Origin: a virus
Taxonomy: Duplodnaviria > Heunggongvirae > Uroviricota > Caudoviricetes
Strand: one strand, 5' to 3'
IMG/VR virus record: IMGVR_UViG_2571042445_000006
DNA: 30,264 bases
Below are positions 1 to 29,272 of this stretch, piece after piece. A program made the position numbers and the translations under genes. The notes under the pieces are model-generated. The model was not told the origin of the DNA, did no database searches, and saw nothing but the letters and a program-made list of their open reading frames with translations. Every line of letters begins with the position of its first letter. Position 1 is the first letter of the stretch.

Positions 1-459
1 ATGGGGAACGAAAAGAGCTTAGCGCACACCCGATGGAACTGTAAATATCACATAGTTTTTGCGCCAAAATACCGAAGACAGGTGTTCTACAGAGAGAAGC
101 GTAGAGCAATAGGCAGTATTTTGAGAAAGCTGTGTGAGTGGAAAAGCGTACGGATTCTGGAAGCTGAATGCTGTGCAGATCATATCCATATGCTTGTGGA
201 GATCCCGCCCAAAATGAGCGTATCCGGGTTTATGGGATATCTGAAAGGGAAAAGCAGTCTGATGCTTTACGAGCAGTTTGGTGATTTGAAATTCAAATAC
301 AGGAACAGGGAGTTCTGGTGCAGAGGGTACTACGTCGATACAGTGGGTAAGAACACGGCGAAGATACAGGATTACATAAAGCACCAGCTTGAAGAGGATA
401 AAATGGGAGAGCAGTTATCGATTCCCTATCCGGGCAGCCCGTTTACGGGCCGTAAGTAA
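1..459 (+). CDS. tnpA: IS200/IS605-family HUH (Y1) transposase TnpA
   Basis: 152-aa ORF starting exactly at window position 1; contains the HUH motif (HIHMLVE) and a C-terminal catalytic tyrosine region (RGYYVDTVG); I recognise the overall sequence as IS200 TnpA. Confidence 0.9.
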   Translation: MGNEKSLAHTRWNCKYHIVFAPKYRRQVFYREKRRAIGSILRKLCEWKSVRILEAECCADHIHMLVEIPPKMSVSGFMGYLKGKSSLMLYEQFGDLKFKYRNREFWCRGYYVDTVGKNTAKIQDYIKHQLEEDKMGEQLSIPYPGSPFTGRK

Positions 460-568
460 CGAAGTTGGATGCAAATGTCAGATCGTGTGCGCCTGTTAGG
501 GCGCGGCTGGTAAGAGAGCCTTATAGGCGCATTTGAAAAACCTCCGGCTATGCCGGAGGATATTTATT
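1..568 (+). mobile_element. IS200-family insertion sequence, partial (left end lies outside the window); right end marked by a perfect 8-bp-stem hairpin at 541-559
   Basis: Contains a complete 152-aa IS200/IS605-type TnpA ORF followed by about 110 bp ending in the palindrome cctccggc-tat-gccggagg and an AT-rich tail, the typical IS200 right-end architecture. Element boundaries are inferred, not aligned. Confidence 0.75.
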
Positions 569-819
569 ATGCAGAGGGTACTACGTCGATACAGTGGGTA
601 AGAACACGGCGAAGATACAGGATTACATAAAGCACCAGCTTGAAGAGGATAAAATGGGAGAGCAGTTATCGATTCCCTATCCGGGCAGCCCGTTTACGGG
701 CCGTAAGTAACGAAGTTGGATGCAAATGTCAGATCGTGTGCGCCTGTTAGGGCGCGGCTGGTAAGAGAGCCTTATAGGCGCATTTGAAAAACCTCCGGCT
801 ATGCCGGAGGATATTTATT
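319..819 (+). repeat. Tandem direct duplication: two identical 250-bp units (319-568 and 570-819) covering the last 141 nt of tnpA plus the IS200 right-end hairpin
   Basis: Read directly: the sequence from cagagggtactacgtcgatacagtgggtaag through ggaggatatttatt occurs twice at a 251-bp offset; the second copy has no 5-prime part of tnpA. Confidence 0.9.
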
Positions 820-876
820 TATCTGCTTTAAATATATTATTAAAATATAAAAAATACTTGTTACTAATAAAATCAA

Positions 877-1047
877 TCAGGCTACAGCTTTAAGATTTGT
901 CTGGAATACTTTGTTGCAATGAGGGCAGATCAAAAGGGCACCTTTTTGTACTCTTGAAAAACTGTGTTCTGACTCTTGGGTGCAGTTTGGGCAGGAACAT
1001 TTAACGAGATAATTACGGCGTGATTTTGAGTTTTTACGTTCTGACAT
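877..1047 (-). CDS. Small zinc-ribbon protein (56 aa, CxxC...CPHC); alternative upstream start at 1098 would give 73 aa
   Basis: ORF with two Cys pairs (CSCPNC and CPHC); AGGA Shine-Dalgarno about 8 nt upstream of the ATG at 1047. Length and zinc-binding character are reminiscent of the Qin prophage protein YnfU, but I cannot verify that identity. Confidence 0.4.
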   Translation of the reverse strand: MSERKNSKSRRNYLVKCSCPNCTQESEHSFSRVQKGALLICPHCNKVFQTNLKAVA

Positions 1048-1266
1048 AGGCTTTTCCTGTATAAATGGCCGTATACAGTACACTAAATATGAAAACATTT
1101 CTCGTATTATTATTTTATATATGACTTTCTTTCAAAATAATTACCCACATTTTTAATGTGTATGTTTTTTTAGCGCCGTTGAGAACAACGTGTGCTGTCA
1201 AAACTACCCCGTAGACTCCGATCTTTTCAAACATATTGCACCATCCGTGTACATCGGGGTGAGGAT

Positions 1267-1482
1267 ATGAAATCAATGGATAAGTTAACAACAGGTGTTG
1301 CCTATGGCACATCGGCGGGTAATGCTGGTTTCTGGGCATTGCAGTTACTCGATAAAGTAACTCCGTCACAGTGGGCTGCAATCGGTGTGCTGGGTAGCCT
1401 GGTTTTTGGCCTGCTGACGTATCTGACAAATCTTTATTTCAAGATTAAAGAAGACAGGCGTAAGGCTGCGAGAGGAGAGTAA
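1267..1482 (+). CDS. Class II holin, phage 21 S-type pinholin with dual-start motif (Met1-Lys-Ser-Met4)
   Basis: 71-aa product [26 protein letters not shown]...[10 protein letters not shown] with two transmembrane segments, recognised as S21/EssD-like; GGAGG-like RBS (gtgagga) upstream; second in-frame ATG at 1276 gives the 68-aa holin form. Confidence 0.9.
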
Positions 1483-1486
1483 TCCA

Positions 1487-1794
1487 ATGACTCAAGACTA
1501 TGAACTGGTTGTGAAAGGAGTCCGTAATTTTGAGAATAAAGTTACGGTAACTGTAGCCTTACAGGACAAAGAACGCTTTGACGGTGAAATTTTTGACCTG
1601 GATGTCGCCATGGACCGTGTTGAAGGAGCTGCGCTGGAGTTTTATGAGGCAGCAGCCAGAAGGAGCGTCCGGCAAGTCTTCCTGGAAGTAGCAGAAAAAT
1701 TGTCAGAAAAAGTTGAGTCTTATCTGCAGCATCAGTACTCCTTTAAGATTGAAAATCCTGCCAATAAGCACGAGCGTCCTCATCATAAATATCT

Positions 1795-1798
<4 letters not shown>
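1487..1798 (+). CDS. DUF1327-family protein (YdfR-like) encoded between holin and endolysin
   Basis: 103-aa ORF with RBS (gagaggaga) and ATGA start/stop overlap with the endolysin gene; resembles YdfR of the K-12 Qin prophage, which occupies the same position. Confidence 0.7.
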
Positions 1799-2822
<1,024 letters not shown>

Positions 2823-3184
2823 GGTAATATTAAATCGGAACATTTACATCGCGGAATGTAAAATTTAAATAAAAAGGACTCTTCCATGAGCCAAAATTCC
2901 TGAAATCTTAAGGGTAAGATAAAAGGTCTTAATCAGAATGACACGTTTTATTAATAAATAAAGCTATTCTTTCATTGCTGTGTTTTTCTTTACAAAAGTA
3001 ATCCTTGCTATGGGTGGTTAATCATGCGTTAATGGTGTTCTGGTTTGTTACAAATTTATCTGAAGCAGTCATTGTTATAATTTTATTATTTGTACCTCTT
3101 GAGATTTCCTTGTTGGTTTTTCTCTCTGATATTTTTTTTCGGACCATTCTGCCCAAGGGCTAATTTCTTCAAAAGGTAATAATT

Positions 3185-3397
3185 ATGTCTAACAAAATGA
3201 CTGGTTTAGTGAAATGGTTTAACCCTGAAAAAGGTTTTGGTTTCATCACGCCGAAAGATGGCAGCAAAGATGTGTTTGTCCATTTCTCAGCAATTCAGAG
3301 CAACGATTTCAAAACATTAACTGAGAATCAGGAAGTTGAATTTGGTATTGAGAACGGACCTAAAGGTCCTGCCGCTGTTCATGTAGTGGCGCTTTGA
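3185..3397 (+). CDS. cspI: CspA-family cold-shock protein, CspI-like
   Basis: 70-aa product [38 protein letters not shown]... with RNP1 (KGFGFI) and RNP2 (VFVHF) motifs; preceded by a long AT-rich untranslated leader (2823-3184), as in cspA-family genes. Confidence 0.9.
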
Positions 3398-3603
3398 GGT
3401 AGACAATATTACAAACCATATTCACTTTAGATGCCCGTGTTGTCATGGTTCCCAGTATAGAACATCATCTTTTGATGTTTCTGACATGAATCCTTTCGGG
3501 GCAAAATGTATCTTTTGTAAATCAATGATGATTACATTTGATAATATTTCACAATACTTAAATGCCAGCCGTCTGTCGTTGGATTTAAAAAAGTGAAAAT
3601 GAA

Positions 3604-3626
3604 GGCTCCTTCGGGAGCTTTTTTGC
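3604..3626 (+). terminator. Rho-independent terminator (GCUCC-UUCG-GGAGC hairpin with U-tract)
   Basis: Read directly: ggctcc ttcg ggagc followed by tttttt; UUCG tetraloop. Confidence 0.7.
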
Positions 3627-3668
3627 TTGGTGTCTATTCGATGGATACTCACATACTACGGTAACATC

Positions 3669-3899
3669 ATGAAAAAAATCATAGTTTTTTTTAACTCTGA
3701 ACCAGCAGTGGTAGTGCCAGCGATGACTGGAGTTAACACCATCATGCGTGAATATCCAAATGGCGAAAAAACACACCTTACTGTAATGGCCGCAGGGTTT
3801 CCATCTCTGACCGGAGATCATAAAGTCATTTATGTAGCCGCGGATCGACATGTTACTTCAGAAGAAATTCTGGAAGCAGCAATAAGGCTCTTGAGTTGA
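3669..3899 (+). CDS. Hypothetical small protein (76 aa) of the cold-shock moron cluster
   Basis: ORF starting MKKIIVFFNSEPAVVV...; ATG at 3669. Function not recognised. Confidence 0.5.
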   Translation: MKKIIVFFNSEPAVVVPAMTGVNTIMREYPNGEKTHLTVMAAGFPSLTGDHKVIYVAADRHVTSEEILEAAIRLLS

Positions 3900-3989
3900 T
3901 TTGATGCTATTGCATTGATAATTCAGGAAAATTCTCTTTGTCTGTTTGTGTAAAATTTAGACTATCGTATGTTGATTATTGCGATGTTT

Positions 3990-4030
3990 CATCTTATCTT
4001 TTACACGTTTGCACCATATAATCGACTTAC
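3990..4030 (+). promoter_or_regulatory. Candidate sigma70 promoter for the GnsB-like gene (perfect -10 TATAAT at 4017-4022)
   Basis: TATAAT hexamer 45 nt upstream of the gnsB-like ATG; the -35 is weak (TTATCT), so this is tentative. Confidence 0.3.
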
Positions 4031-4067
4031 TGTGTAACTGGAAAGTCATAACAGACTAAAAGAGGAA

Positions 4068-4244
4068 ATGATGAATATTGAAAACTTAAAAACAAAAGCA
4101 GAAGCAGATATTTCTGAATATATAACAAAAAAAATTATTGAACTTAAGAAAAAGACCGGGAAAGAAGTTACCAGTATTCAGTTTACCGCACGGGAAAAAA
4201 TGACGGGTCTTGAAAGCTATGATGTCAAGATTAATTTAATCTGA
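4068..4244 (+). CDS. gnsB: GnsA/GnsB-family protein
   Basis: 58-aa ORF (below the ORF-track cutoff) that I translated by hand: MMNIENLKTKAEADISEYITKKIIELKKKTGKEVTSIQFTAREKMTGLESYDVKINLI; AGAGGA RBS upstream; resembles GnsB of the Qin prophage. Confidence 0.75.
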   Translation: MMNIENLKTKAEADISEYITKKIIELKKKTGKEVTSIQFTAREKMTGLESYDVKINLI

Positions 4245-4395
4245 TGTATTCAATAATAAAATTTATCCATAAACCTCGTTTTTACGGGGTTTTGTTATAT
4301 TTGAATGGTTCCGAATATCTAAATCACAATTGTTGATGGTTTTTATTAAACCAATGCAGTCCGGCTCAGGAGTGAGAGAAGCCGGACGTTATGGT

Positions 4396-4806
4396 TTAGC
4401 GTGGTAAGATCTGTGTAGTTTTCTGGATGCTTTCAGTAAATAGTAATGAATTATCAAAGGTATAGTAATATCTTTTTTGTTCGTGGATATTTGTAACCCA
4501 CCGAAAAACTCCTGCTTTAGCAAGGTTTCTTCTGTATTCCTGAAATGTGATCTCTCTGGATTTCAGCTTATTAGAGGTCGTTTCTATAAGATGCCTATCC
4601 TTTGAAAATTTGACAGACACAATGTTTTTTAGGCCCTTTAATAACACTGTATTATCATTTTTTAATACAATATGAACATTCTCTGTGGCTAAATAGTAAA
4701 TGTAATGTGAGACATTGTGACGTTTTAGCTCAGAATAAAACCATTGATAGTTTAAATCGTTTCGAACTTTATCAAATATTTGTTTAAAAATGACTACCTG
4801 ATCCAT
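4396..4806 (-). CDS. ydfO: DUF1398-family protein (YdfO/YbcV-like)
   Basis: ORF translating [30 protein letters not shown]..., which I recognise as YdfO-like; alternative start 15 nt upstream at 4821. Confidence 0.8.
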
Positions 4807-4863
4807 AGATAAACCTTCCATGTGATATGAGGGGGCGTAGTCTGCACGATTATCTAAATTGCT

Positions 4864-5097
4864 TCAATCTGGTCTGACCTGTTTTCTGAGCAATTCAGTA
4901 ATGTCACTCTTTTCTTTGTTTGCTTCAGAAGAAACTCTTTTTTCTGAGCACAGTCTCCGGCGGCAGGCTTCAATGACCCAGGCTGAGAAATTCCCGGACC
5001 CTTTTTGCTCAAGAGCGATGTTAATTTGTTCAATCATTTGGTTAGGAAAGCGGATGTTGCGGGTTGTTGTTCTGCGGGTTCTGTTCTTCGTTGACAT
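4864..5097 (-). CDS. DUF3950-family small basic protein (YnfO/YlcI-like), possible ribbon-helix-helix DNA-binding protein
   Basis: 77-aa ORF MSTKNRTRRTTTRNIRFPNQMIEQINIALEQKG...; N-terminal Arg/Thr-rich segment. Identity to YnfO is from memory. Confidence 0.65.
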   Translation of the reverse strand: MSTKNRTRRTTTRNIRFPNQMIEQINIALEQKGSGNFSAWVIEACRRRLCSEKRVSSEANKEKSDITELLRKQVRPD

Positions 5098-5269
5098 GAG
5101 GTTGCCCCGTATTCAGTGTCGCTGATTTGTATTGTCTGAAGTTGTTTTTACGTTAAGTTGATGCAGATCAATTAATACGATACCTGCGTCATAATTGATT
5201 ATTTGACGTGGTTTGATGGCCTCCACGCACGTTGTGATATGTAGATGATAATCATTATCACTTTACGGG

Positions 5270-5485
5270 TCCTTTCCGGTGATCCGACAGGTTACGGGGC
5301 GGCGACCTCGCGGGTTTTCGCTATTTATGAAAATTTTCCGGTTTAAGGCGTTTCCGTTCTTCTTCGTCGTAACTTAATGTTTTTATTTAAAATACCCCCT
5401 GAAAAGAAAGGAAACGACAGGTGCTGAAAACGAACTTTTGGGCCTCTGTCGTTTCCTTTCTCTGTTTTTGGCCGTGGAATGAACA
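5270..5485. other. cos: Lambda-type cos site (cosQ/cosN/cosB region); the 12-nt cohesive-end sequence gggcggcgacct lies at 5297-5308
   Basis: Read directly: gttacg-gggcggcgacct-cgcgggttttcgctatttatgaaaattttccggtttaaggcg..., which matches the junction of the lambda right and left genome ends as I remember them, immediately upstream of Nu1. Confidence 0.9.
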
Positions 5486-6005
5486 ATGGAAGTCAACAAA
5501 AAGCAGCTGGCTGACATTTTCGGTGCGAGTATCCGTACCATTCAGAACTGGCAGGAACAGGGAATGCCCGTTCTGCGAGGCGGTGGCAAGGGTAATGAGG
5601 TGCTTTATGACTCTGCCGCCGTTATAAAATGGTATGCCGAAAGGGATGCTGAAATTGAGAACGAAAAGCTGCGCCGGGAAGTTGAAGAACTGCGGCAGGC
5701 CAGCGAGACAGATCTCCAGCCAGGGACTATTGAGTACGAACGCCACCGACTTACGCGTGCACAGGCCGACGCACAGGAGCTGAAAAATGCCAGAGACTCC
5801 GCTGAAGTGGTGGAAACCGCATTCTGTACTTTCGTGCTGTCGCGGATCGCAGGTGAAATTGCCAGTATTCTCGACGGGATCCCCCTGTCGGTGCAGCGGC
5901 GTTTTCCGGAACTGGAAAACCGACATGTTGATTTCCTGAAACGGGATATCATCAAAGCCATGAACAAAGCAGCCGCGCTGGATGAACTGATACCGGGGTT
6001 GCTGA

Positions 6006-6031
<26 letters not shown>
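5486..6031 (+). CDS. nu1: Terminase small subunit Nu1
   Basis: 181-aa product MEVNKKQLADIFGASIRTIQNWQEQGMPVLRGGGKGNEVLYD..., near-identical to lambda gpNu1 as I recall it (winged HTH N-terminus). Confidence 0.97.
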
Positions 6032-9712
<3,681 letters not shown>

Positions 9713-9732
<20 letters not shown>

Positions 9733-11032
9733 TCTCCCGCATATTGCCAGCATGGCTTTTAATGAGCCGCTGATGCTTGAACCCGCCTATGCGCGGGTTT
9801 TCTTTTGTGCGCTTGCAGGCCAGCTTGGGATCAGCCGCCTGACGGATGCAGTATCCGGCGACAGCCTGATTGCCGGAGAGGCACCCGCGGCGCTGGCGTT
9901 ATCCGGTGATGATGACGGACCACGACAGGCCCGCAGTTATCAGGTCATGAACGGCATCGCCGTGCTGCCGGTGTCCGGTACGCTGGTCAGCCGGACGCGG
10001 GCGCTGCAGCCGTATTCGGGAATGACCGGTTACAACGGCATTATCGCCCGTCTGCAACAGGCTGCCAGCGATCCGATGGTGGACGGCATTCTGCTGGATA
10101 TGGACACACCGGGCGGGATGGTGGCGGGAGCATTTGACTGTGCTGACATCATCGCCCGTGTGCGAGACATAAAACCGGTATGGGCGCTGGCCAACGACAT
10201 GAACTGCAGTGCAGGTCAGCTGCTTGCCAGCGCCGCCTCCCGGCGTCTGGTCACGCAGACCGCCCGGACAGGCTCCATCGGCGTCATGATGGCTCACAGT
10301 AATTACGGTGCTGCGCTGGAGAAACAGGGCGTGGAAATCACGCTGATTTACAGCGGCAGCCATAAGGTGGATGGCAACCCCTACAGCCATCTACCGGATG
10401 ATGTCCGGGAAACACTGCAGTCCCGGATGGATGCAACCCGCCGGATGTTTGCACAGAAGGTGTCGGCATATACCGGCCTGTACGTGCAGGCTGTGCTGGA
10501 TACCGAGGCTGCAGTGTACAGCGGTCAGGAGGCCATTGATGCCGGACTGGCTGATGAACTTGTGAACAGTACCGATGCGATCACCGTCATGCGTGATGCA
10601 CTGGATGCACGTAAATCCCGTCTCTCAGGAGGGCGAATGACCAAAGAGACTCAATCAACAACTGTTTCAGCCACTGCTTCGCAGGCTGACGTTACTGGCG
10701 TGGTGCAAGCGACGGAGGGCGAGAACGCCAGCGCTGCGCAGCCGGACGTGAACGCGCAGATCACCGCAGCGGTTGCGGCAGAAAACAGTCGCATTATGGG
10801 GATCCTCAACTGTGAGGAGGCTCACGGACGCGAAGAACAGGCATGCGTGCTGGCCGAAACCCCTGGTATGACCGTGGAAACGGCCCGCCGTATTCTGGCC
10901 GCAGCACCACAGAGTGCACAGACGCGCAGTGACACTGCGCTGGATCGTCTGATGCAGGGGGCACCGGCACCGCTGGCTGCAGGTAACCCGGCATCTGATG
11001 CCGTTAACGATTTGCTGAACACACCAGTGTAA
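9713..11032 (+). CDS. C: Capsid assembly protease C (GTG start overlapping the end of B)
   Basis: Product begins (M)TAELRNLPHIASMAFNEPLML..., matching lambda gpC; GAGGAGG RBS upstream of the GTG at 9713; 439 codons as in lambda. The ORF-track start at 9578 is an upstream in-frame extension. Confidence 0.9.
10637..11032 (+). CDS. nu3: Scaffolding protein Nu3, in-frame internal start within C
   Basis: ATG at 10637 preceded by GGAGGG RBS, in the same frame as C; product MTKETQSTTVSATASQ... matches lambda gpNu3. Confidence 0.85.
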   Translation: MTKETQSTTVSATASQADVTGVVQATEGENASAAQPDVNAQITAAVAAENSRIMGILNCEEAHGREEQACVLAETPGMTVETARRILAAAPQSAQTRSDTALDRLMQGAPAPLAAGNPASDAVNDLLNTPV

Positions 11033-11041
11033 GGGATGTTT

Positions 11042-11374
11042 ATGACGAGCAAAGAAACCTTTACCCATTACCAGCCGCTGGGCAACAGTGACCCGGCTCA
11101 TACCGCAACCGCGCCCGGCGGATTGAGTGCGAAAGCGCCTGCAATGACCCCGCTGATGCTGGACACCTCCACCCGTAAGCTGGTTGCGTGGGATGGCACC
11201 ACCGACGGTGCTGCCGTTGGCATTCTTGCAGTTGCTGCTGACCAGACCAGCACCACACTGACGTTCTACAAGTCCGGCTCGTTCCGTTATGAGGATGTGC
11301 TCTGGCCGGAGGCTGCCAGCGACGAGACGAAAAAACGGACCGCGTTTGCCGGAACGGCAATCAGCATCGTTTAA
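11042..11374 (+). CDS. D: Head decoration protein D
   Basis: 110-aa product [27 protein letters not shown]... matching lambda gpD. Confidence 0.95.
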
Positions 11375-11428
11375 CTTTACCCTTCATCACTAAAGGCCGC
11401 CTGTGCGGCTTTTTTACGGGATTTTTTT

Positions 11429-12454
11429 ATGTCGATGTACACAACCGCCCAGCTGCTGGCGGCAAATGAGCAGAAATTTAAGTTTGATCCGCTGTTTCTG
11501 CGTCTCTTTTTCCGTGAGAGCTATCCCTTCACTACGGAGAAAGTCTATCTCTCACAAATTCCGGGACTGGTAAACATGGCGCTGTACGTTTCGCCGATTG
11601 TTTCCGGTGAGGTTATCCGTTCCCGTGGCGGCTCCACCTCTGAATTTACGCCGGGATATGTCAAGCCGAAGCATGAAGTGAATCCGCAGATGACCCTGCG
11701 TCGCCTGCCGGATGAAGATCCGCAGAATCTGGCGGACCCGGCTTACCGCCGCCGTCGCATCATCATGCAGAACATGCGTGACGAAGAGCTGGCCATTGCT
11801 CAGGTCGAAGAGATGCAGGCAGTTTCTGCCGTGCTTAAGGGCAAATACACCATGACCGGTGAAGCCTTCGATCCGGTTGAGGTGGATATGGGCCGCAGTG
11901 AGGAGAATAACATCACGCAGTCCGGCGGCACGGAGTGGAGCAAGCGTGACAAGTCCACGTATGACCCGACCGACGATATCGAAGCCTACGCGCTGAACGC
12001 CAGCGGTGTGGTGAATATCATCGTGTTCGATCCGAAAGGCTGGGCGCTGTTCCGTTCCTTCAAAGCCGTCAAGGAGAAGCTGGATACTCGTCGCGGCTCT
12101 CATTCCGAGCTGGAGACAGCGGTGAAAGACCTAGGTAAAGCGGTGTCCTATAAGGGGATGTATGGCGATGTGGCCATCGTCGTGTATTCCGGACAGTACG
12201 TGGAAAACGGCGTCAAAAAGAACTTCCTGCCGGACAACACGATGGTGCTGGGGAACACTCAGGCACGCGGTCTGCGCACCTATGGCTGCATTCAGGATGC
12301 GGACGCACAGCGCGAAGGCATTAACGCCTCTGCCCGTTACCCGAAAAACTGGGTGACCACCGGCGATCCGGCGCGTGAGTTCACCATGATTCAGTCAGCA
12401 CCGCTGATGCTGCTGGCTGACCCTGATGAGTTCGTGTCCGTACAACTGGCGTAA
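11429..12454 (+). CDS. E: Major capsid protein E
   Basis: 341-aa product matching lambda gpE. Confidence 0.97.
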   Translation: MSMYTTAQLLAANEQKFKFDPLFLRLFFRESYPFTTEKVYLSQIPGLVNMALYVSPIVSGEVIRSRGGSTSEFTPGYVKPKHEVNPQMTLRRLPDEDPQNLADPAYRRRRIIMQNMRDEELAIAQVEEMQAVSAVLKGKYTMTGEAFDPVEVDMGRSEENNITQSGGTEWSKRDKSTYDPTDDIEAYALNASGVVNIIVFDPKGWALFRSFKAVKEKLDTRRGSHSELETAVKDLGKAVSYKGMYGDVAIVVYSGQYVENGVKKNFLPDNTMVLGNTQARGLRTYGCIQDADAQREGINASARYPKNWVTTGDPAREFTMIQSAPLMLLADPDEFVSVQLA

Positions 12455-12495
12455 TCATGGCCCTTCGGGGCCATTGTTTCTCTGTGGAGGAGTCC

Positions 12496-12894
12496 ATGAC
12501 GAAAGATGAACTGATTGCCCGTCTCCGCTCGCTGGGTGAACAACTGAACCGTGATGTCAGCCTGACGGGGACGAAAGAAGAACTGGCGCTCCGTGTGGCA
12601 GAGCTGGAAGAGGAGCTTGATGACACGGATGAAACTGCCGGTCAGGACACCCCTCTCAGCCGGGAAAATGTGCTGACCGGACATGAAAATGAGGTGGGAT
12701 CAGCGCAGCCGGATACCGTGATTCTGGATACGTCTGAACTGGTCACGGTCGTGGCACTGGTGAAGCTGCATACTGATGCACTTCACGCCACGCGGGATGA
12801 GGCTGTGGCATTTGTGCTGCCGGGAACGGCGTTTCGTGTCTCTGCCGGTGTGGCAGCCGAAATGACAGAGCGCGGCCTGGCCAGAATGCAATAA
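12496..12894 (+). CDS. FI: DNA packaging protein FI
   Basis: 132-aa product MTKDELIARLRSLGEQLN... matching lambda gpFI; the ORF-track start at 12457 is an upstream extension. Confidence 0.93.
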   Translation: MTKDELIARLRSLGEQLNRDVSLTGTKEELALRVAELEEELDDTDETAGQDTPLSRENVLTGHENEVGSAQPDTVILDTSELVTVVALVKLHTDALHATRDEAVAFVLPGTAFRVSAGVAAEMTERGLARMQ

Positions 12895-12905
12895 CGGGAG
12901 GCGCT

Positions 12906-13259
12906 GTGGCTGATTTCGATAACCTGTTCGATGCTGCCATTGCCCGCGCCGATGAAACGATACGCGGGTACATGGGAACGTCAGCCACCATTACATCCGG
13001 TGAGCAGTCCGGTGCGGTGATACGTGGTGTTTTTGATGACCCTGAAAATATCAGCTATGCCGGACAGGGCGTGCGCGTTGAAGGCTCCAGCCCGTCCCTG
13101 TTTGTCCGGACTGATGAGGTGCGGCAGCTGCGGCGTGGAGACACGCTGACCATCGGTGAGGAAAATTTCTGGGTAGATCGGGTTTCGCCGGATGATGGCG
13201 GAAGCTGTCATCTCTGGCTTGGACGGGGCGTGCCGCCTGCCGTTAACCGTCGCCGCTGA
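12906..13259 (+). CDS. FII: Head-tail joining protein FII (GTG start)
   Basis: 117-aa product MADFDNLFDAAIARADE... matching lambda gpFII. Confidence 0.93.
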   Translation: MADFDNLFDAAIARADETIRGYMGTSATITSGEQSGAVIRGVFDDPENISYAGQGVRVEGSSPSLFVRTDEVRQLRRGDTLTIGEENFWVDRVSPDDGGSCHLWLGRGVPPAVNRRR

Positions 13260-13270
13260 AAGGGGGATGT

Positions 13271-13849
13271 ATGGCCATAAAAGGTCTTGAGCAGGCCGTT
13301 GAAAACCTCAGCCGTATCAGCAAAACGGCGGTGCCCGGTGCCGCCGCAATGGCCATTAACCGCGTTGCTTCATCCGCGATATCGCAGTCGGCGTCACAGG
13401 TTGCCCGTGAGACAAAGGTACGCCGGAAACTGGTAAAGGAAAGGGCCAGGCTGAAAAGGGCCACGGTCAAAAACCCGCAGGCCAGAATCAAAGTTAACCG
13501 GGGGGATTTGCCCGTAATCAAGCTGGGTAATGCGCGGGTTGTCCTGTCCCGCCGCAGGCGTCGTAAAAAGGGGCAGCGTTCATCCCTGAAAGGTGGCGGC
13601 AGCGTGCTTGTGGTGGGTAACCGTCGTATTCCCGGCGCGTTTATTCAGCAACTGAAAAATGGGCGGTGGCATGTCATGCAGCGTGTGGCCGGGAAAAACC
13701 GTTACCCCATTGATGTGGTGAAAATCCCGATGGCGGTGCCGCTTACCACGGCGTTTAAACAGAATATTGAACGGATACGGCGTGAACGTCTTCCGAAAGA
13801 GCTGGGCTATGCGCTGCAGCATCAACTGAGAATGGTAATAAAGCGATGA
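13271..13849 (+). CDS. Z: Tail completion protein Z
   Basis: 192-aa product matching lambda gpZ. Confidence 0.95.
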   Translation: MAIKGLEQAVENLSRISKTAVPGAAAMAINRVASSAISQSASQVARETKVRRKLVKERARLKRATVKNPQARIKVNRGDLPVIKLGNARVVLSRRRRRKKGQRSSLKGGGSVLVVGNRRIPGAFIQQLKNGRWHVMQRVAGKNRYPIDVVKIPMAVPLTTAFKQNIERIRRERLPKELGYALQHQLRMVIKR

Positions 13850-14241
13850 AACATACTGAACTCCGTGCAGCCGTACTGGATGCACTGGAGAAGCATGACA
13901 CCGGGGCGACGCTTTTTGATGGTCGCCCCGCTGTTTTTGATGAGGCGGATTTTCCGGCAATTGCCGTTTATCTCACCGGCGCTGAATACACGGGCGAAGA
14001 GCTGGACAGCGATACCTGGCAGGCGGAGCTGCATATTGAAGTTTTCCTGCCTGCTCAGGTGCCGGATTCAGAGCTGGATTCGTGGATGGAGTCCCGGATT
14101 TATCCGGTGATGAGCGATATCCCGGCACTGTCAGATTTGATCACCAGTATGGTGGCCAGTGGCTATGACTACCGGCGCGACGATGATGCGGGCCTGTGGA
14201 GTTCAGCCGATCTGACTTATGTCATTACCTATGAAATGTGA
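13846..14241 (+). CDS. U: Tail terminator protein U
   Basis: 131-aa product matching lambda gpU. Confidence 0.95.
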
Positions 14242-14248
14242 GGACGCT

Positions 14249-14989
14249 ATGCCTGTACCAAATCCAACAATGCCGGTGAAAGGTGCCGGGACCACACTGT
14301 GGGTTTATAAGGGGAGCGGTGACCCTTATGCGAATCCGCTTTCAGACGTTGACTGGTCGCGTCTGGCAAAAGTTAAAGACCTGACGCCCGGCGAACTGAC
14401 CGCTGAGTCCTATGACGACAGCTATCTCGATGATGAAGATGCAGACTGGACTGCGACCGGGCAGGGGCAGAAATCTGCCGGAGATACCAGCTTCACGCTG
14501 GCGTGGATGCCCGGAGAGCAGGGGCAGCAGGCGCTGCTGGCGTGGTTTAATGAAGGCGATACCCGTGCCTATAAAATCCGCTTCCCGAACGGCACGGTCG
14601 ATGTGTTCCGTGGCTGGGTCAGCAGTATCGGTAAGGCGGTGACGGCGAAGGAAGTGATCACCCGCACGGTGAAAGTCACCAATGTGGGACGTCCGTCGAT
14701 GGCAGAAGATCGCAGCACGGTAACAGCGGCAACCGGCATGACCGTGACGCCTGCCAGCACCTCGGTGGTGAAAGGGCAGAGCACCACGCTGACCGTGGCC
14801 TTCCAGCCGGAGGGCGTAACCGACAAGAGCTTTCGTGCGGTGTCTGCGGATAAAACAAAAGCCACCGTGTCGGTCAGTGGTATGACCATCACCGTGAACG
14901 GCGTTGCTGCAGGCAAGGTCAACATTCCGGTTGTATCCGGTAATGGTGAGTTTGCTGCGGTTGCAGAAATTACCGTCACCGCCAGTTAA
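14249..14989 (+). CDS. V: Major tail tube protein V (with C-terminal Ig-like domain)
   Basis: 246-aa product [22 protein letters not shown]... matching lambda gpV. Confidence 0.95.
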
Positions 14990-15004
14990 TCCGGAGAGTC
15001 AGCG

Positions 15005-15427
15005 ATGTTCCTGAAAACCGAATCATTTGAACATAACGGTGTGACCGTCACGCTTTCTGAACTGTCAGCCCTGCAGCGCATTGAGCATCTCGCCCTGATG
15101 AAACGGCAGGCAGAACAGGCGGAGTCAGACAGCAACCGGAAGTTTACTGTGGAAGACGCCATCAGAACCGGCGCGTTTCTGGTGGCGATGTCCCTGTGGC
15201 ATAACCATCCGCAGAAGACGCAGATGCCGTCCATGAATGAAGCCGTTAAACAGATTGAGCAGGAAGTGCTTACCACCTGGCCCACGGAGGCAATTTCTCA
15301 TGCTGAAAACGTGGTGTACCGGCTGTCTGGTATGTATGAGTTTGTGGTGAATAATGCCCCTGAACAGACAGAGGACGCCGGGCCCGCAGAGCCTGTTTCT
15401 GCGGGAAAGTGTTCGACGGTGAGCTGA
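15005..15427 (+). CDS. G: Tail assembly chaperone G
   Basis: 140-aa product matching lambda gpG. Confidence 0.95.
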   Translation: MFLKTESFEHNGVTVTLSELSALQRIEHLALMKRQAEQAESDSNRKFTVEDAIRTGAFLVAMSLWHNHPQKTQMPSMNEAVKQIEQEVLTTWPTEAISHAENVVYRLSGMYEFVVNNAPEQTEDAGPAEPVSAGKCSTVS

Positions 15428-15843
15428 GTTTTGCCCTGAAACTGGCGCGTGAGATGGGGCGACCCGACTGGCGTGCCATGCTTGCCGGGATGTCATCCAC
15501 GGAGTATGCCGACTGGCACCGCTTTTACAGTACCCATTATTTTCATGATGTTCTGCTGGATATGCACTTTTCCGGGCTGACGTACACCGTGCTCAGCCTG
15601 TTTTTCAGCGATCCGGATATGCATCCGCTGGATTTCAGTCTGCTGAACCGGCGTGAGGCTGACGAAGAGCCTGAAGATGATGTGCTGATGCAGAAAGCGG
15701 CAGGGCTTGCCGGAGGTGTCCGCTTTGGCCCGGACGGGAATGAAGTTATCCCCGCTTCCCCGGATGTGGCGGACATGACGGAGGATGACGTAATGCTGAT
15801 GACAGTATCAGAAGGGATCGCAGGAGGAGTCCGGTATGGCTGA
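15005..15843 (+). CDS. T: Tail assembly chaperone G-T fusion, made by programmed -1 ribosomal frameshift at slippery heptamer G GGA AAG (15403-15409)
   Basis: Slippery sequence gggaaag in the correct X XXY YYZ phase relative to the G frame; the -1 frame ORF (15409-15843) encodes the lambda gpT sequence. Confidence 0.9.
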
Positions 15844-18397
15844 ACCGGTAGGCGATCTGGTCGTTGATTTAAGTCTGGATGCGGCCAGATTTGACGAGCA
15901 GATGGCCAGAGTCAGGCGTCATTTTTCCGGTACGGAAAGTGATGCGAAAAAAACAGCGGCAGTCGTTGAACAGTCGCTGAGCCGACAGGCGCTGGCTGCA
16001 CAGAAAGCGGGGATTTCCGTCGGGCAGTATAAAGCCGCCATGCGTATGCTGCCTGCACAGTTCACCGACGTGGCCACGCAGCTTGCAGGCGGGCAAAGTC
16101 CGTGGCTGATCCTGCTGCAACAGGGGGGGCAGGTGAAGGACTCCTTCGGCGGGATGATCCCCATGTTCCGGGGGCTTGCCGGTGCGATCACCCTGCCGAT
16201 GGTCGGGGCCACCTCGCTGGCGGTGGCGACCGGTGCGCTGGCGTATGCCTGGTATCAGGGCAACTCAACCCTGTCCGATTTCAACAAAACGCTGGTCCTT
16301 TCCGGCAATCAGTCGGGTCTGACGGCAGATCGTATGCTGGTCCTGTCCAGAGCCGGGCAGGCGGCAGGGCTGACGTTTAACCAGACCAGCGAGTCACTCA
16401 GCGCACTGGTTAAGGCGGGAGTAAGCGGTGAGGCTCAGATTGCGTCCATCAGCCAGAGTGTGGCGCGTTTCTCCTCTGCATCCGGCGTGGAGGTGGACAA
16501 GGTCGCTGAAGCCTTCGGGAAGCTGACCACAGACCCGACGTCGGGGCTGACGGCGATGGCGCGCCAGTTCCATAACGTGACGGCGGAGCAGATTGCGTAT
16601 GTTGCTCAGTTGCAGCGTTCCGGCGATGAGGCCGGGGCATTGCAGGCAGCGAACGAGGCCGCAACGAAAGGGTTTGATGACCAGACCCGCCGCCTGAAAG
16701 AGAACATGGGCACGCTGGAGACCTGGGCAGACAGGACTGCACGGGCATTCAAATCCATGTGGGATGCGGTGCTGGATATTGGTCGTCCTGATACCGCGCA
16801 GGAGATGCTGATTAAGGCAGAGGCTGCGTTTAAGAAAGCAGACGACATCTGGAATCTGCGCAAGGATGATTATTTTGTTAACGATGAAGCGCGGGCGCGT
16901 TACTGGGATGATCGTGAAAAGGCCCGTCTTGCGCTTGAAGCCGCCCGAAAGAAGGCTGAGCAGCAGACTCAACAGGACAAAAATGCGCAGCAGCAGAGCG
17001 ATACCGAAGCGTCACGGCTGAAATATACCGAAGAGGCGCAGAAGGCTTACGAACGGCTGCAGACGCCGCTGGAGAAATATACCGCCCGTCAGGAAGAACT
17101 GAACAAGGCACTGAAAGACGGGAAAATCCTGCAGGCGGATTACAACACGCTGATGGCGGCGGCGAAAAAGGATTATGAAGCGACGCTGAAAAAGCCGAAA
17201 CAGTCCGGCGTGAAGGTGTCTGCGGGCGATCGTCAGGAAGACAGTGCTCATGCTGCCCTGCTGACGCTTCAGGCAGAACTCCGGACGCTGGAGAAGCATG
17301 CCGGAGCGAATGAGAAAATCAGCCAGCAGCGCCGGGATTTGTGGAAGGCGGAGAGTCAGTTCGCGGTACTGGAGGAGGCGGCGCAACGTCGCCAGCTGTC
17401 TGCACAGGAGAAATCCCTGCTGGCGCATAAAGATGAGACGCTGGAGTACAAACGCCAGCTGGCTGCACTTGGCGACAAGGTTACGTATCAGGAGCGCCTG
17501 AACGCGCTGGCGCAGCAGGCGGATAAATTCGCACAGCAGCAACGGGCAAAACGGGCCGCCATTGATGCGAAAAGCCGGGGGCTGACTGACCGGCAGGCAG
17601 AACGGGAAGCCACGGAACAGCGCCTGAAGGAACAGTATGGCGATAATCCGCTGGCGCTGAATAACGTCATGTCAGAGCAGAAAAAGACCTGGGCGGCTGA
17701 AGACCTGCTTCGCGGGAACTGGATGGCAGGCCTCAGGTCCGGCTGGAGTGAGTGGGAAGAGAGTGCCACGGACAGTATGTCGCAGGTAAAAAGTGCTGCC
17801 ACGCAGACCTTTGATGGTATTGCACAGAATATGGCGGCGATGCTGACCGGCAGTGAGCAGAACTGGCGCAGCTTCACCCGCTCCGTGCTGTCCATGATGA
17901 CAGAAATTCTGCTTAAGCAGGCAATGGTGGGGATTGTCGGGAGTATCGGCAGCGCTATTGGCGGGGCTGTTGGTGGTGGCGCATCCGCGTCAGGCGGTAC
18001 AGCCATTCAGGCAGCTGCGGCGAAATTCCATTTTGCGACCGGAGGATTTACGGGAACCGGCGGCAAATATGAGCCAGCGGGGATTGTCCACCGCGGGGAG
18101 TTTGTCTTCACGAAGGAGGCAACCAGCCGGATTGGTGTCGGGAACCTGTACCGCCTGATGCGGGGCTATGCGGAAGGGGGGTATGTGGGTGCTGCCGGAA
18201 GTCCGGCGCAGATGCGGCGGGCCGAAGGCATTAATTTTAATCAGAACAATCACGTGGTGATTCAGAACGACGGTATCAACGGACAGGCCGGGCCGCAGCT
18301 GATGAAAGCGGTGTATGAGATGGCCCGTAAAGGTGCGCAGGATGAGCTCCGGCTGCAGTTGCGTGATGGCGGTCTGTTATCGGGGAGCGGGCGATGA
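15836..18397 (+). CDS. H: Tail tape measure protein H
   Basis: 853-aa product matching lambda gpH in length and sequence. Confidence 0.97.
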   Translation: MAEPVGDLVVDLSLDAARFDEQMARVRRHFSGTESDAKKTAAVVEQSLSRQALAAQKAGISVGQYKAAMRMLPAQFTDVATQLAGGQSPWLILLQQGGQVKDSFGGMIPMFRGLAGAITLPMVGATSLAVATGALAYAWYQGNSTLSDFNKTLVLSGNQSGLTADRMLVLSRAGQAAGLTFNQTSESLSALVKAGVSGEAQIASISQSVARFSSASGVEVDKVAEAFGKLTTDPTSGLTAMARQFHNVTAEQIAYVAQLQRSGDEAGALQAANEAATKGFDDQTRRLKENMGTLETWADRTARAFKSMWDAVLDIGRPDTAQEMLIKAEAAFKKADDIWNLRKDDYFVNDEARARYWDDREKARLALEAARKKAEQQTQQDKNAQQQSDTEASRLKYTEEAQKAYERLQTPLEKYTARQEELNKALKDGKILQADYNTLMAAAKKDYEATLKKPKQSGVKVSAGDRQEDSAHAALLTLQAELRTLEKHAGANEKISQQRRDLWKAESQFAVLEEAAQRRQLSAQEKSLLAHKDETLEYKRQLAALGDKVTYQERLNALAQQADKFAQQQRAKRAAIDAKSRGLTDRQAEREATEQRLKEQYGDNPLALNNVMSEQKKTWAAEDLLRGNWMAGLRSGWSEWEESATDSMSQVKSAATQTFDGIAQNMAAMLTGSEQNWRSFTRSVLSMMTEILLKQAMVGIVGSIGSAIGGAVGGGASASGGTAIQAAAAKFHFATGGFTGTGGKYEPAGIVHRGEFVFTKEATSRIGVGNLYRLMRGYAEGGYVGAAGSPAQMRRAEGINFNQNNHVVIQNDGINGQAGPQLMKAVYEMARKGAQDELRLQLRDGGLLSGSGR

Positions 18398-18723
18398 AAA
18401 CATTTCGCTGGAAAGTGAAGCCGGATATGGAGGTGAACTCGCAGCCATCGGTGCGTGAAGTGCGTTTTGGTGACGGGTACTCACAGCGTATGGCGGCAGG
18501 GCTGAATGCTGACCTGAAAACATACAGGGTGACGCTTTCCGTGACCCGGGAGGAGGCCCGGCATCTGGAAGCGTTCCTGGCAGAGCACGGTGGCTGGAAG
18601 GCATTTTTGTGGAAGCCACCCTATGCATACCGGCAGATAAAGGTGACCTGTGCCGGGTGGTCTGCGCGGGTCGGGATGTTGCGCGTTGAGTTCAGCGCGG
18701 AGTTTAAGCAGGTGGTGAACTGA
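18394..18723 (+). CDS. M: Tail tip protein M
   Basis: 109-aa product matching lambda gpM. Confidence 0.95.
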   Translation: MKTFRWKVKPDMEVNSQPSVREVRFGDGYSQRMAAGLNADLKTYRVTLSVTREEARHLEAFLAEHGGWKAFLWKPPYAYRQIKVTCAGWSARVGMLRVEFSAEFKQVVN

Positions 18724-19421
18724 TGCAGGATATTCGCGAAGAAAGTCTGAACGAGTCGGTTAAGTCAGAGCAGTCACCGCGGGTGGTACTCTGGGAAATC
18801 GACCTGACGGTACAGGGCGGTGAGCGGTATTTTTTCTGTAATGAGCTGAATGAAAAAGGGGAGCCGGTCACCTGGCAGGGGCGGCAATATCAGGCATACC
18901 CGATTGACGGCAGCGGTTTTGAGATGAGCGGGAAGGGCAGCAGTGCCAGACCGTCGCTGACGGTGTCCAATCTGTTCGGTCTGGTCACCGGGATGGCGGA
19001 AGACCTGCAGAGTCTGGTGGGGGCCACGGTGGTCCGCCGCCGGGTGTATGCCCGTTTTCTGGATGCGGTGAATTTCGTTGCGGGCAATCCGGCGGCGGAC
19101 CCGGAGCAGGAGCTGAGTGACCGCTGGGTGGTGGAGCAGATGTCGCAGCTGACAGCCATGACGGCCTCGTTTGTGCTGGCCACACCGACCGAGACGGACG
19201 GGGCGCTGTTTCCCGGTCGTATCATGCTGGCGAACACCTGTATGTGGACCTACCGCTCTGATGAGTGTGGTTACACGGGCGGGGCTGTGGCGGATGAGTT
19301 CGATAAACCCACCACGGATATCCGTAAGGACAGATGCAGCAAGTGCATGCGCGGGTGTGAACTGCGCAGGAATGTCGGCAATTTTGGCGGTTTCCTTTCC
19401 ATTAATAAACTTTCGCAGTAA
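18723..19421 (+). CDS. L: Tail tip protein L
   Basis: 232-aa product matching lambda gpL. Confidence 0.95.
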   Translation: MQDIREESLNESVKSEQSPRVVLWEIDLTVQGGERYFFCNELNEKGEPVTWQGRQYQAYPIDGSGFEMSGKGSSARPSLTVSNLFGLVTGMAEDLQSLVGATVVRRRVYARFLDAVNFVAGNPAADPEQELSDRWVVEQMSQLTAMTASFVLATPTETDGALFPGRIMLANTCMWTYRSDECGYTGGAVADEFDKPTTDIRKDRCSKCMRGCELRRNVGNFGGFLSINKLSQ

Positions 19422-19431
19422 ATCCCGGTTT

Positions 19432-20175
19432 ATGACACAGACTGAATCAGCGATTCTGGCACATGCCCGGCGGTGTGCGCCTGCGGAGTCGTGCGGCTTC
19501 GTGATAAGCACGCCGGAGGGGGAGTGGTATATCCCTTGTGTGAATATTTCCGCGGAGCCGGAGGCGTATTTTCGTATCGCACCGGAAGACTGGCTGCGGG
19601 CAGAGATGCAGGGGGAGATTGTGGCACTGGTCCACAGTCATCCCGGTGGGCTGCCCTGGCTGAGCGAGGCTGACCGGCGGCTGCAGATAAAAAGCGCACT
19701 GCCCTGGTGGCTGGTCTGCCGGGGTGACATTCACAAATTCCGCTGTGTGCCACATCTGACGGGACGGCGCTTTGAGCACGGGGTGACGGACTGTTACACG
19801 CTGTTCCGGGATGCTTATCATCTGGCGGGGACTGAAATGCCGGATTTTCATCGCGAGGATGACTGGTGGCGCAACGGCCAGAACCTTTACCTGGACAATA
19901 TGGCGGTCACCGGCTTTTACCGGGTGCCCCTGTCCTCTGCACAGGCGGGCGATATTCTGCTGTGCTGCTTTGGTGCTTCGGTACCGAACCATGCCGCCAT
20001 TTACTGCGGTAACGGTGAGCTGCTTCACCATCTGCCTGAACAACTGAGTAAACGGGAGAGGTATTCCGAAAAATGGCAACGACGAACGCATTCTGTCTGG
20101 CGTCACCGCCACTGGCACGCATCTGCCTTCACGGGGATTTACAACGATTTGGCCGCCGCCTCAGCCTGTATGTGA
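19432..20175 (+). CDS. K: Tail tip assembly protein K (JAMM/MPN metalloprotease-like plus NlpC/P60-like domains)
   Basis: ORF from ATG 19432 (MTQTESAILAHARR...); JAMM-type motif HSHPGG...SEAD present. My recollection of the lambda reference annotation is that it starts at an internal Met (here 19576) to give 199 aa; the longer ORF starts 11 nt after L. Confidence 0.85.
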   Translation: MTQTESAILAHARRCAPAESCGFVISTPEGEWYIPCVNISAEPEAYFRIAPEDWLRAEMQGEIVALVHSHPGGLPWLSEADRRLQIKSALPWWLVCRGDIHKFRCVPHLTGRRFEHGVTDCYTLFRDAYHLAGTEMPDFHREDDWWRNGQNLYLDNMAVTGFYRVPLSSAQAGDILLCCFGASVPNHAAIYCGNGELLHHLPEQLSKRERYSEKWQRRTHSVWRHRHWHASAFTGIYNDLAAASACM

Positions 20176-20753
20176 ACACGGCAGCGGAAGCCATTCGCGC
20201 CCTGTCGATGCAGATGCCGGGCTTTCGCCGTCAGATGAACGAAGGCTGGTACCAGATACGTATTGCCGGTGATGACACGGCACCGGAGGCGGTGTACGCC
20301 CGTCTTCACGAACAGCTGGGTGAGGGAACGGTCATCCACATTGTGCCGCGACTGGCCGGGGCCGGAAAGGGTGGACTGCAGATTGTGCTGGGGGCGGCAG
20401 CCATCGTGGGCTCTTTCTTCACGGCCGGAGGCTCGATGGCGTTATGGGGTACAGCCCTGAGTGCCGGTGGTTTTTCTGCCACCACGATGCTGTTTTCACT
20501 GGGTGCCAGCATGATACTGGGCGGAGTGGCCCAGATGCTGGCCCCGAAGGCAAAAACACCGGATTACCGCGCAACGGATAACGGCAGACAGAACACGTAC
20601 TTTTCCTCGCTGGATAACATGATTGCCCAGGGGAACCCGATGCCGGTGCCTTACGGGGAAATGCTGGTTGGCTCCCGCCGTATATCCCAGGACATCAGCA
20701 CCCGTGATGAAGGCGGGGGCGGAAAGGTCGTGGTTATCGGGCGGCAGGGGTAA
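20073..20753 (+). CDS. I: Tail tip assembly protein I
   Basis: 226-aa product resembling lambda gpI (ubiquitin-like N-terminus, Gly/Ala-rich C-terminus); overlaps K by 103 nt as in lambda. Confidence 0.93.
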   Translation: MATTNAFCLASPPLARICLHGDLQRFGRRLSLYVNTAAEAIRALSMQMPGFRRQMNEGWYQIRIAGDDTAPEAVYARLHEQLGEGTVIHIVPRLAGAGKGGLQIVLGAAAIVGSFFTAGGSMALWGTALSAGGFSATTMLFSLGASMILGGVAQMLAPKAKTPDYRATDNGRQNTYFSSLDNMIAQGNPMPVPYGEMLVGSRRISQDISTRDEGGGGKVVVIGRQG

Positions 20754-20760
20754 AAAGAAT

Positions 20761-20799
20761 AAAAAAATCCCGCAGTGATCGCGGACAGGAACTGCGGGA
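20761..20799 (-). terminator. Rho-independent terminator on the minus strand (8-bp stem tcccgcag/ctgcggga, followed on the minus strand by a U7 tract)
   Basis: Read directly: aaaaaaa-tcccgcag-tgatcgcggacaggaa-ctgcggga on the plus strand; the loop is long (16 nt), so folding stability should be checked. Confidence 0.5.
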
Positions 20800-20963
20800 G
20801 AGTTACGAAGATTAAGTGTAAGGAATTATTCTTATATCACGACAAAAAAATTAACGCAGAGAAATTATACGCGCCACAGTCAGTGTGTGAAAATGTGAAG
20901 ATATTCAGAATTTTTATGCCATTACCGGTTTTAACCAACAGGATTATCGGTGGGCATGAAAGA

Positions 20964-20993
20964 AAACCCCGGTATCTGCTGATACCGGGGTTT
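20964..20993. terminator. Strong GC-rich hairpin (13-bp stem aaaccccggtatc/gataccggggttt, 4-nt loop), possible bidirectional terminator
   Basis: Read directly; flanked by U-rich sequence on both strands (tctcttt on plus; ucuuuc on minus). Confidence 0.6.
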
Positions 20994-21096
20994 CTCTTTA
21001 GCATGGCAGAAATGTGTTTCATGCTTTTCGGGCGAAGGATATCCGACTTCTGTACGGAATGGCAAGTGGCGGTTAATTTATTCAGGGGAAGGCTGT

Positions 21097-24789: not shown

Positions 24790-24807
24790 ATTTTATAACC
24801 CCAATAC

Positions 24808-24832
24808 GGGCGCCAGAAATGGCGCCTTTTTT
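24808..24832 (+). terminator. Rho-independent terminator downstream of J (stem gggcgcc/ggcgcc, loop agaaat, U6 tract)
   Basis: Read directly: gggcgccagaaatggcgcctttttt, 19 nt after the J stop. Confidence 0.8.
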
Positions 24833-24856
24833 ATTGCAGAAAAGCGAGAGGTAATT

Positions 24857-25456: not shown

Positions 25457-25561
25457 CAACAGACGCCGATTTATCTTCTGTAAATATTGTTATGATACGC
25501 AGGTTCATCCACCTTATGGGGTGAACTGCGTTTGAGGAAACGTAAAGTTACACTGTCCTGA

Positions 25562-25593
25562 AGCCCGTGGCGTCACTGCTGCGGGCTTTTTTT
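25562..25593 (+). terminator. Rho-independent terminator between lom and stf (stem agcccg.../...cgggct, U7 tract)
   Basis: Read directly: aagcccgtggcgtcactgctgcgggcttttttt, 15 nt upstream of the stf start. Confidence 0.75.
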
Positions 25594-25607
25594 ATTGGTG
25601 GAAAAGT

Positions 25608-29218: not shown

Positions 29219-29232
29219 TCATTGGGATTATG

Positions 29233-29265: not shown

Positions 29266-29272
29266 TTGGATG

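Follow-up and report, generated by a model that had tools for sequence, protein, structure and literature searches.

An IS200C copy with an apparently doubled right end upstream of the lysis genes of a Qin-type prophage

Introduction

What has happened to an insertion sequence that appears with two right ends directly in front of the lysis genes of a lambdoid prophage, and what would it mean for the expression of the late genes behind it? The question is raised by the first 820 bases of the window, which is the whole stretch of tailed-phage DNA analysed here (30,264 nucleotides, IMG/VR record IMGVR_UViG_2571042445_000006). Our answer has four parts: the element is IS200C, the site is of the Qin type, the insertion is probably near-neutral and the duplication may be an artefact. 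Held together as one statement, these four parts have in our judgement an even chance of being correct, and the parts are graded separately below. A private tandem repeat in a multicopy insertion sequence should be checked against the reads before it is interpreted. In the literature search no report was found of this insertion, of partial tandem duplications of IS200, or of IS200 targeting terminators.

Identity of the Element and Its Insertion Site

The open reading frame at 1..459 on the plus strand is tnpA and encodes an intact Y1 (HUH) transposase of IS200C with 152 amino acids. The Pfam family PF01797 matches residues 11-129 of the product (E=3.8e-38), and the HUH motif H61-I62-H63 and Tyr125 are seen directly in the translation. 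The DNA is 100% identical to the tnpA of strain 7/2 annotated by PGAP as IS200C (WP_000526135.1, locus CRT46_RS08910). The first-pass annotation had described a complete IS200-type tnpA; the gene is indeed intact, but the element is not complete, as the window starts at the ATG of tnpA, which is nucleotide 144 of the IS, and the left end of 143 nt falls outside it. In strain 7/2 the missing part occupies L001 7858-8000 and holds the left-end hairpin (L001 7868-7890, outside the window) together with the STnc490/art200 5′UTR (Rfam RF01405, 146 bits, L001 7868-7991). What follows in the window, 1..569 on the plus strand, is IS200C nt 144-712 as in the single-copy relatives, 1-568 being 100% identical to L001 8001-8568 of strain 7/2.

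The bounds of the 712-bp element (GTGCACAG…GATATTTATTT, L001 7858-8569) were obtained by comparing the occupied site of strain 7/2 with the empty site of the phage PhiR42_1 (L002). With a stroke marking the boundary, the empty site reads TTTTTTATT/ATCTGC and the occupied one TTTTTTATT/GTGCAC…TATTTATTT/ATCTGC, and the boundary is ambiguous by 0-2 nt. The insertion lies directly 3′ of the intrinsic terminator of cspB (…GCGGGTTTTTTATT/GTGCACAG…) and has no target duplication; in PhiR42_1 the empty site (…AAACCCGCTCAGGCGGGTTTTTTATT/ATCTGC…) comes after a terminator-like hairpin and a T-run. The left and right hairpins of the element are near-identical and fold stably as single-stranded DNA, as expected of TnpA binding sites. 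For the right-end hairpin the fold was calculated as −10 kcal/mol (single-strand DNA), and it is predicted to be terminator-like on both strands.

A single Y1 HUH open reading frame, subterminal hairpins (the left one in the relatives) and the lack of a target duplication all agree with the IS200 group. The length does not: elements of this group have about 707-712 bp with one left and one right end, whereas the copy in the window, with its two right ends, would measure 963 bp, against 712 bp in the relatives. This deviation is the finding itself and may be an artefact. For the identity and the context taken by themselves, i.e., that window 1-820 is the known IS200C minus its first 143 nt in a Qin-type prophage, our confidence is high. 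IS200C and this insertion site are already known and have been annotated in dozens of genomes, so no new kind of system is involved.

The Repeat and Its Junction

The first-pass annotation reported two identical 250-bp units at 319-568 and 570-819 and a right-end hairpin that occurs twice, and both observations were confirmed. In the self-comparison of the window, bases 319-568 equal 570-819 as an exact direct repeat of 250 nt with 100% identity, and Tandem Repeats Finder reports 319-819 with period 251, 2.0 copies and 100% matches. An exact repeat of this length cannot be due to chance. Copy 1 (319..568, plus strand) is IS200C nt 462-711 and comprises the final 47 codons of tnpA and the right end. 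Copy 2 (570..819, plus strand) consists of a 5′-truncated tnpA fragment and the right end; according to the ORF list, the only reading frame left in its tnpA fragment is a GTG-initiated one of 38 amino acids at 594-710. The hairpin CCTCCGGCTATGCCGGAGG followed by ATATTTATT is present at 541..559 in copy 1, where it is terminator-like on both strands and close to the left-end hairpin, and again at 792..810 in copy 2; both are on the plus strand. The real boundary between IS and flank follows the second one at 820/821, and the alignment of IS-free phage sequence to the window begins at 814 and continues downstream. In the window, no ORF of at least 30 amino acids crosses the junction, and an Rfam scan of the duplicated region gave no match.

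Between the two copies stands a single base, the ‘a’ at 569 (569..569, plus strand), which differs from both 318 (g) and 820 (t) and, from comparison with strain 7/2, is templated by neither copy. Together with copy 2 it makes up the extra 251 bases of the window, and the junction reads GGATATTTATTATGCAGAGG. It can be described in three ways. In the first (a), 250 nt were copied and an ‘a’ without a template was added; in the second (b), a duplication of 252 bp is perfect and takes in the two flank bases ‘at’, but one T has gone from a TTT run; in the third (c), IS nt 461-711 (251 bp) are perfectly duplicated and the first base has changed from G to A. The three are equally parsimonious with one extra change each, and none of them joins seamlessly at a TnpA cleavage site.

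Distribution of the Insertion and Search for the Junction

The window was compared by megablast with 5,426 complete E. coli genomes (28 Gb). IS200C is found at exactly this site in 59 of them (99.4-100% identity), where PGAP annotates ‘IS200/IS605-like element IS200C family transposase’, ynfU and essD in succession, and the site is empty in about 1,580. By these numbers the insertion is a minority, derived and lineage-specific state. The occupied genomes carry IS200C in 18-35 places each. All 59 align to window 1-1300 over 1,049 bp and not 1,300, which corresponds to a single right end; one IMG/VR contig with the same insertion also has a single right end.

A 40-nt probe with the junction at its centre had no match in the 5,426 complete E. 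coli genomes. As a control of seeding, 54-mer probes for a right end joined to a left end (RE/LE), which run over the same AT-rich motif, do match in these genomes. The junction 33-mer was absent from the IMG/VR viral, GTDB-representative and JGI metagenome collections, and when the 38-aa ORF of copy 2 was looked up exactly, the matches were all IS200 copies of the ordinary, gapped or interrupted kind. Each protein of the window encoded within 10 kb of the IS is present on 1,000 contigs or more. If the duplication is set aside, only a single synonymous SNP (2226) and an IS1 that is missing in the window distinguish window 1-17,103 from strain 7/2. As the remainder of the window is without an indel against its relatives, the junction is the only anomaly. 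By these searches the duplication is private, and hence either very recent or not real.

The SNP at 2226 is a synonymous A/G difference in the endolysin gene; over the first 17 kb there is no other base substitution relative to strain 7/2. The IS1 of strain 7/2 lies beside gnsB with a 9-10-bp alignment overlap at its flanks, and window 4234-4243 is the uninterrupted site.

Origin of the Duplication

The three origins named in the first-pass annotation (a partial second copy, slippage and an artefact of assembly) each keep a share of the probability. Slightly favoured is the reading that the extra 251 bases are not biological, to which we give about half of the total probability. Here, an unmerged overlap or a gap-closing join during assembly of the IS200C repeat, which has roughly 20 copies, would have doubled the right end. 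This is favoured because copy 1 comes to an end precisely where the sequence shared by all IS200C copies does (…TATTTATT), after which the base differs among the copies (T, G or A), because copy 2 extends from the unique flank inward over 250-251 nt of the IS, and because the base at the junction is untemplated. Such a length is common for MiSeq reads. In one draft assembly a contig breaks off near window 822, as estimated from the coordinates of locus and record, and in another a scaffold is interrupted by an N gap within IS200. The assembly reading rests on coincidences, namely the period of 251 and the end of copy 1 at the last shared base, and three things speak against it. Copy 2 starts with TGCA, which lies within the GTGCA at IS nt 461, the same pentamer with which the left end opens; a perfect overlap of 250 nt would as a rule be merged during assembly; and head-to-tail dimers of IS200C exist in the lineage.

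The dimers bring in a two-step origin, which we consider possible yet rather unlikely. In the first step a second IS200C would insert right after the TTATT of a resident right end, whose hairpin and TTTATT mimic the preferred target. In the second step the downstream copy would lose its left end and two-thirds of tnpA by a deletion between two occurrences of the 5-nt repeat GTGCA, at its nt 1-5 and nt 461-465. Joined ends of this kind are common: the RE/LE 54-mers match perfectly (single matches of 54/54 nt) in 216 (TTATT/GTGCAC) and 103 (TTATTT/GTGCAC) of the 5,426 complete E. coli genomes, dimers being present in over 300, and at two loci, in strains that also have the Qin insertion, pairs of complete tnpA genes lie 711 and 712 bp apart. 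Moreover, GTGCA occurs only at IS nt 1, 316 and 461, and a deletion to nt 461 yields the 251-bp period with no appeal to read length. The scheme predicts TTATT-G-TGCAGAGG, however, while TTATT-A-TGCAGAGG is observed, so that an extra G-to-A at the junction is needed; none of the 59 genomes has a dimer at this locus; and three private events would be required in one genome. The broader claim, that the duplication is real and records self-targeting by IS200C whose copies land adjacent to each other and then decay, is put forward tentatively and at a similarly low probability. If it were true, elements with one left and two right ends and solo right-end hairpins would be expected, the latter possibly as mobile bidirectional terminators in phage operons.

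A simple tandem duplication of about 251 bp in situ, made after insertion by slippage or template switching near the right-end hairpin, seems unlikely to us. The hairpin is a strong one as single-stranded DNA, as noted above, and the 100% identity of the copies would make the event recent. When the junction is read as a 252-bp duplication of IS nt 463-712 and the flank ‘at’, with loss of one T from the TTT run, the flank bases place the event in situ. Breakpoint microhomology is at most 1 nt, though, no reading does without a further change, be it a filler base, the deletion of a T or a substitution, and the duplication is absent from 60 of 60 related sequences.

Two further candidates were rejected. 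Y1 transposases of the IS200/IS605 family recognise where to cleave by the sequence on the 5′ side of the cut, as established for IS608. A junction made by the transposase itself, with a cleaved right end joined to a pseudo-left-end inside tnpA, could appeal to the internal GTGCAGAG, which resembles the left terminus GTGCACAG. Immediately 5′ of the breakpoint within tnpA stands TTCTGG and not TTATT, and strand transfer is seamless, yet an untemplated ‘a’ is present; with the wrong 5′ context and this base we regard such a junction as extremely improbable. Unequal crossing-over between distant IS copies was discarded since it would duplicate the intervening genome and not 251 bp. What probability remains goes to transposase chemistry or to something not considered.

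If the duplication is real after all, tnpA is intact and the element would combine one left end with two right ends that can both be used, and would carry a further terminator-like hairpin. It could then move as a unit of 712 bp or of 963 bp, or leave a solo right end upon excision.

Prophage Context and Late Gene Expression

The 446 bp between the true right end of the IS (820) and the start of the holin gene (1267) hold ynfU (877..1047, minus strand), which encodes a small zinc-ribbon protein (PF23499, E=6.4e-31; PGAP in strain 7/2) and is a usual resident of this intergenic region. The lysis genes follow on the plus strand: a class II holin of the phage-21 type (essD/essQ, 1267..1482; PF04971, E=4.4e-34, and annotation), ydfR (DUF1327, 1487..1798; Pfam and annotation), the endolysin gene rrrQ (1795..2328; phage lysozyme, PF00959, and annotation), whose hydrophobic N-terminus suggests that the enzyme may be of the SAR type, and the Rz-like rzpQ (DUF2514, PF10721, 2325..2822; Pfam and annotation). 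The families PF04971, PF00959 and PF10721 thus stand consecutively in 1267-2822 with ydfR (DUF1327) interposed, as in a phage-21-type cassette. Embedded in rzpQ in the +1 frame is a lipoprotein ORF (2500-2772) with a lipobox-like LTSC motif, presumably the Rz1-type spanin partner (rzoQ). A thermoregulator 5′UTR of the cspA type (Rfam RF01766, 112.8 bits) is found at window 3039-3424 upstream of cspI (3185-3397), and a second one lies upstream of cspB in the relatives (L001 7174-7566).

In strain 7/2 the order of genes is ydfU, ydfT, a small ORF (minus strand), cspF (minus), cspB (plus), IS200C, ynfU (minus), essD, ydfR, rrrQ, rzpQ and cspI, followed by the terminase and then the morphogenesis genes. 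The ydfT of the relatives belongs to the family of lambda Q (PF03589, E=3.6e-54; PDB 7UBM, lambda Q, E=4.6e-36). Immediately behind the stop codon of ydfT stands a promoter-like TTTGCA-18-TAAAAT, and the alignment with lambda reveals a conserved TCAACGATGGG just 3′ of the −10 element and then a hairpin terminator. By this likeness the promoter, the pause-region motif TCAACGATGGG and the hairpin after ydfT would form a pR′/tR′-like module, and it is identical in the IS-bearing chromosome of strain 7/2 and in the IS-free phage PhiR42_1. In the relatives, ydfT, pR′ and the tR′-like hairpin lie about 1.4 kb upstream of the IS.

With this arrangement the claims of the first-pass annotation about the context can be sorted. 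It placed an IS200-family element immediately upstream of the lysis cassette, and this holds, the element being IS200C by Pfam and PGAP and the cassette being of the phage-21 type. Likewise, there is no Q gene between IS and holin, and from the gene order of strain 7/2 the IS does separate Q/pR′ from the late genes in position in the relatives. The site is not, as it had supposed, the usual place of Q, pR′ and tR′: in IS-free relatives the Q-pR′-tR′ block precedes the holin by about 1.9 kb, a distance that the IS, where present, lengthens to 2.6 kb. In IS-free phages including PhiR42_1 the gap between Q and holin is filled by cspF (minus strand), cspB (plus) and ynfU (minus), which means that the IS displaced nothing. 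Comparison with the relatives thus indicates that the lack of Q beside the holin is normal for Qin-type phages, and that the IS, having displaced no Q, lies within the late transcript of the relatives in the orientation of late transcription.

Does the insertion then impair the late genes? It could be argued that the IS with its partly doubled terminators uncouples Q/pR′ from the late operon and leaves a prophage that makes neither lysis nor particles although its genes are intact. The position of the IS between pR′ and holin in the relatives is in favour of this, and so are the two terminator-like right-end hairpins of the window. Furthermore, the left-end hairpin of IS200 is a bidirectional rho-independent terminator that blocks impinging transcription (PMC4513863). 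Against uncoupling stand several observations. On the path from pR′ to holin, the IS-free phage already has a tR′-like hairpin and the cspB terminator. In the deposited genomes of two lambdoid phages, PhiR63_2 and Lambda_ev058, a sense-orientation IS200 stands directly after a tR2-like terminator between ren and ninB, which is inside the antiterminated pR operon. The downstream late genes are intact and identical across the IS-bearing genomes compared. It is also established that Q of the lambda family turns RNA polymerase terminator-resistant. The IS would add terminator hairpins that the Q-modified polymerase should pass as it does tR′ and the cspB terminator. Because this polymerase already passes two terminators, and because IS200 is found in pR operons of phages, we infer that the IS is probably near-neutral for induced lysis and morphogenesis, and uncoupling is considered quite improbable. 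Even so, the additional terminators may reduce the expression of the late genes or basal read-through.

Recombinant Origin of the Prophage

The window as a whole is an exact recombinant of two prophages that are co-resident in the same lineage, with the crossover at 16742-17103 in the tape-measure gene (15836-18397). Window 1-17,103 is the Qin-type prophage of strain 7/2, and window 16,742-30,264 is a second lambdoid prophage that lies beside pot/pepT genes in strain 103. The look-up of gpJ matched this second parental prophage. The hybrid tape-measure protein was found on only 7 contigs, and none of the 4 displayed ones is identical to that of the window. Strain 103 carries the two prophages about 0.5 Mb from each other and oppositely oriented, an arrangement suggestive of an inversion of the chromosome in the source lineage.

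Insertion Next to Terminators

In all inspected copies of IS200 and IS200C, the element is directly 3′ of a terminator-like hairpin and a T-rich tail (…TTTTTATT/, …TTTTTGTT/ or …TTTTTT/). The independent sites with this pattern number more than 13 and come from E. coli, Salmonella and lambdoid phages; among them are L001 7832-7857, L018 2830-2857, L019, L004 ~865-894, L006 ~2835-2863, L031 and L032, and further the left flanks of L003 and L007-L012. The right end of IS200C appears to mimic its own target. Dimers of IS200C were seen between yfeY and yfeX in WCHEC040047 (L031 817-2238) and between yedP and yodD in EC190329 (L032 816-2238). In Salmonella, an IS200 copy interrupted by an IS3-family element has a right end …GATATTTATT followed by GTCTATG (L003, L005 and L011 ~3226-3233); GTCTATG is the first 7 nt of the left end of Salmonella IS200 and may be a remnant of a tandem copy or a circle junction. 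Landing directly after intrinsic terminators and the occurrence of head-to-tail dimers in hundreds of genomes could be useful to bear in mind when IS200 insertions and their polar effects are annotated.

Comparison with Known Systems

The prophage belongs with Qin of E. coli K-12 and the phages PhiR42_1, HannyBb, Tritos and 2H10, with which it shares the order ydfU, Q (ydfT/quuQ), cspF, cspB, ynfU, essQ/essD, ydfR, rrrQ, rzpQ and cspI. The Qin-type phage relatives checked have no IS at the site, and the window prophage differs from the Qin group in keeping a full lambda-like set of head and tail genes. The late module of the relatives is like that of lambda in having a Q of the lambda family followed by a promoter with TCAACGATGGG and a hairpin terminator. 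In lambda it lies about 0.7 kb from the holin, whereas in the relatives, outside the window, the distance is about 1.9 kb (2.6 kb with the IS), and the transcript to the hairpin is much shorter than the lambda 6S RNA.

With the annotated IS200C of strain 7/2 the window shares the same tnpA, right end and cspB-ynfU/essD site, as well as subterminal hairpins with neither inverted repeats nor a target duplication, and among the copies searched the window alone has the extra 251 bases that repeat IS nt 462-711. The nearest likeness to these bases is found in the dimers of WCHEC040047 and EC190329, in which, as in the window, a second stretch of IS200C comes directly after the TTATT of a resident right end. 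In the dimers this second copy is complete from nucleotide 1 of the left end, whereas in the window it begins at nt 462 after the odd ‘a’.
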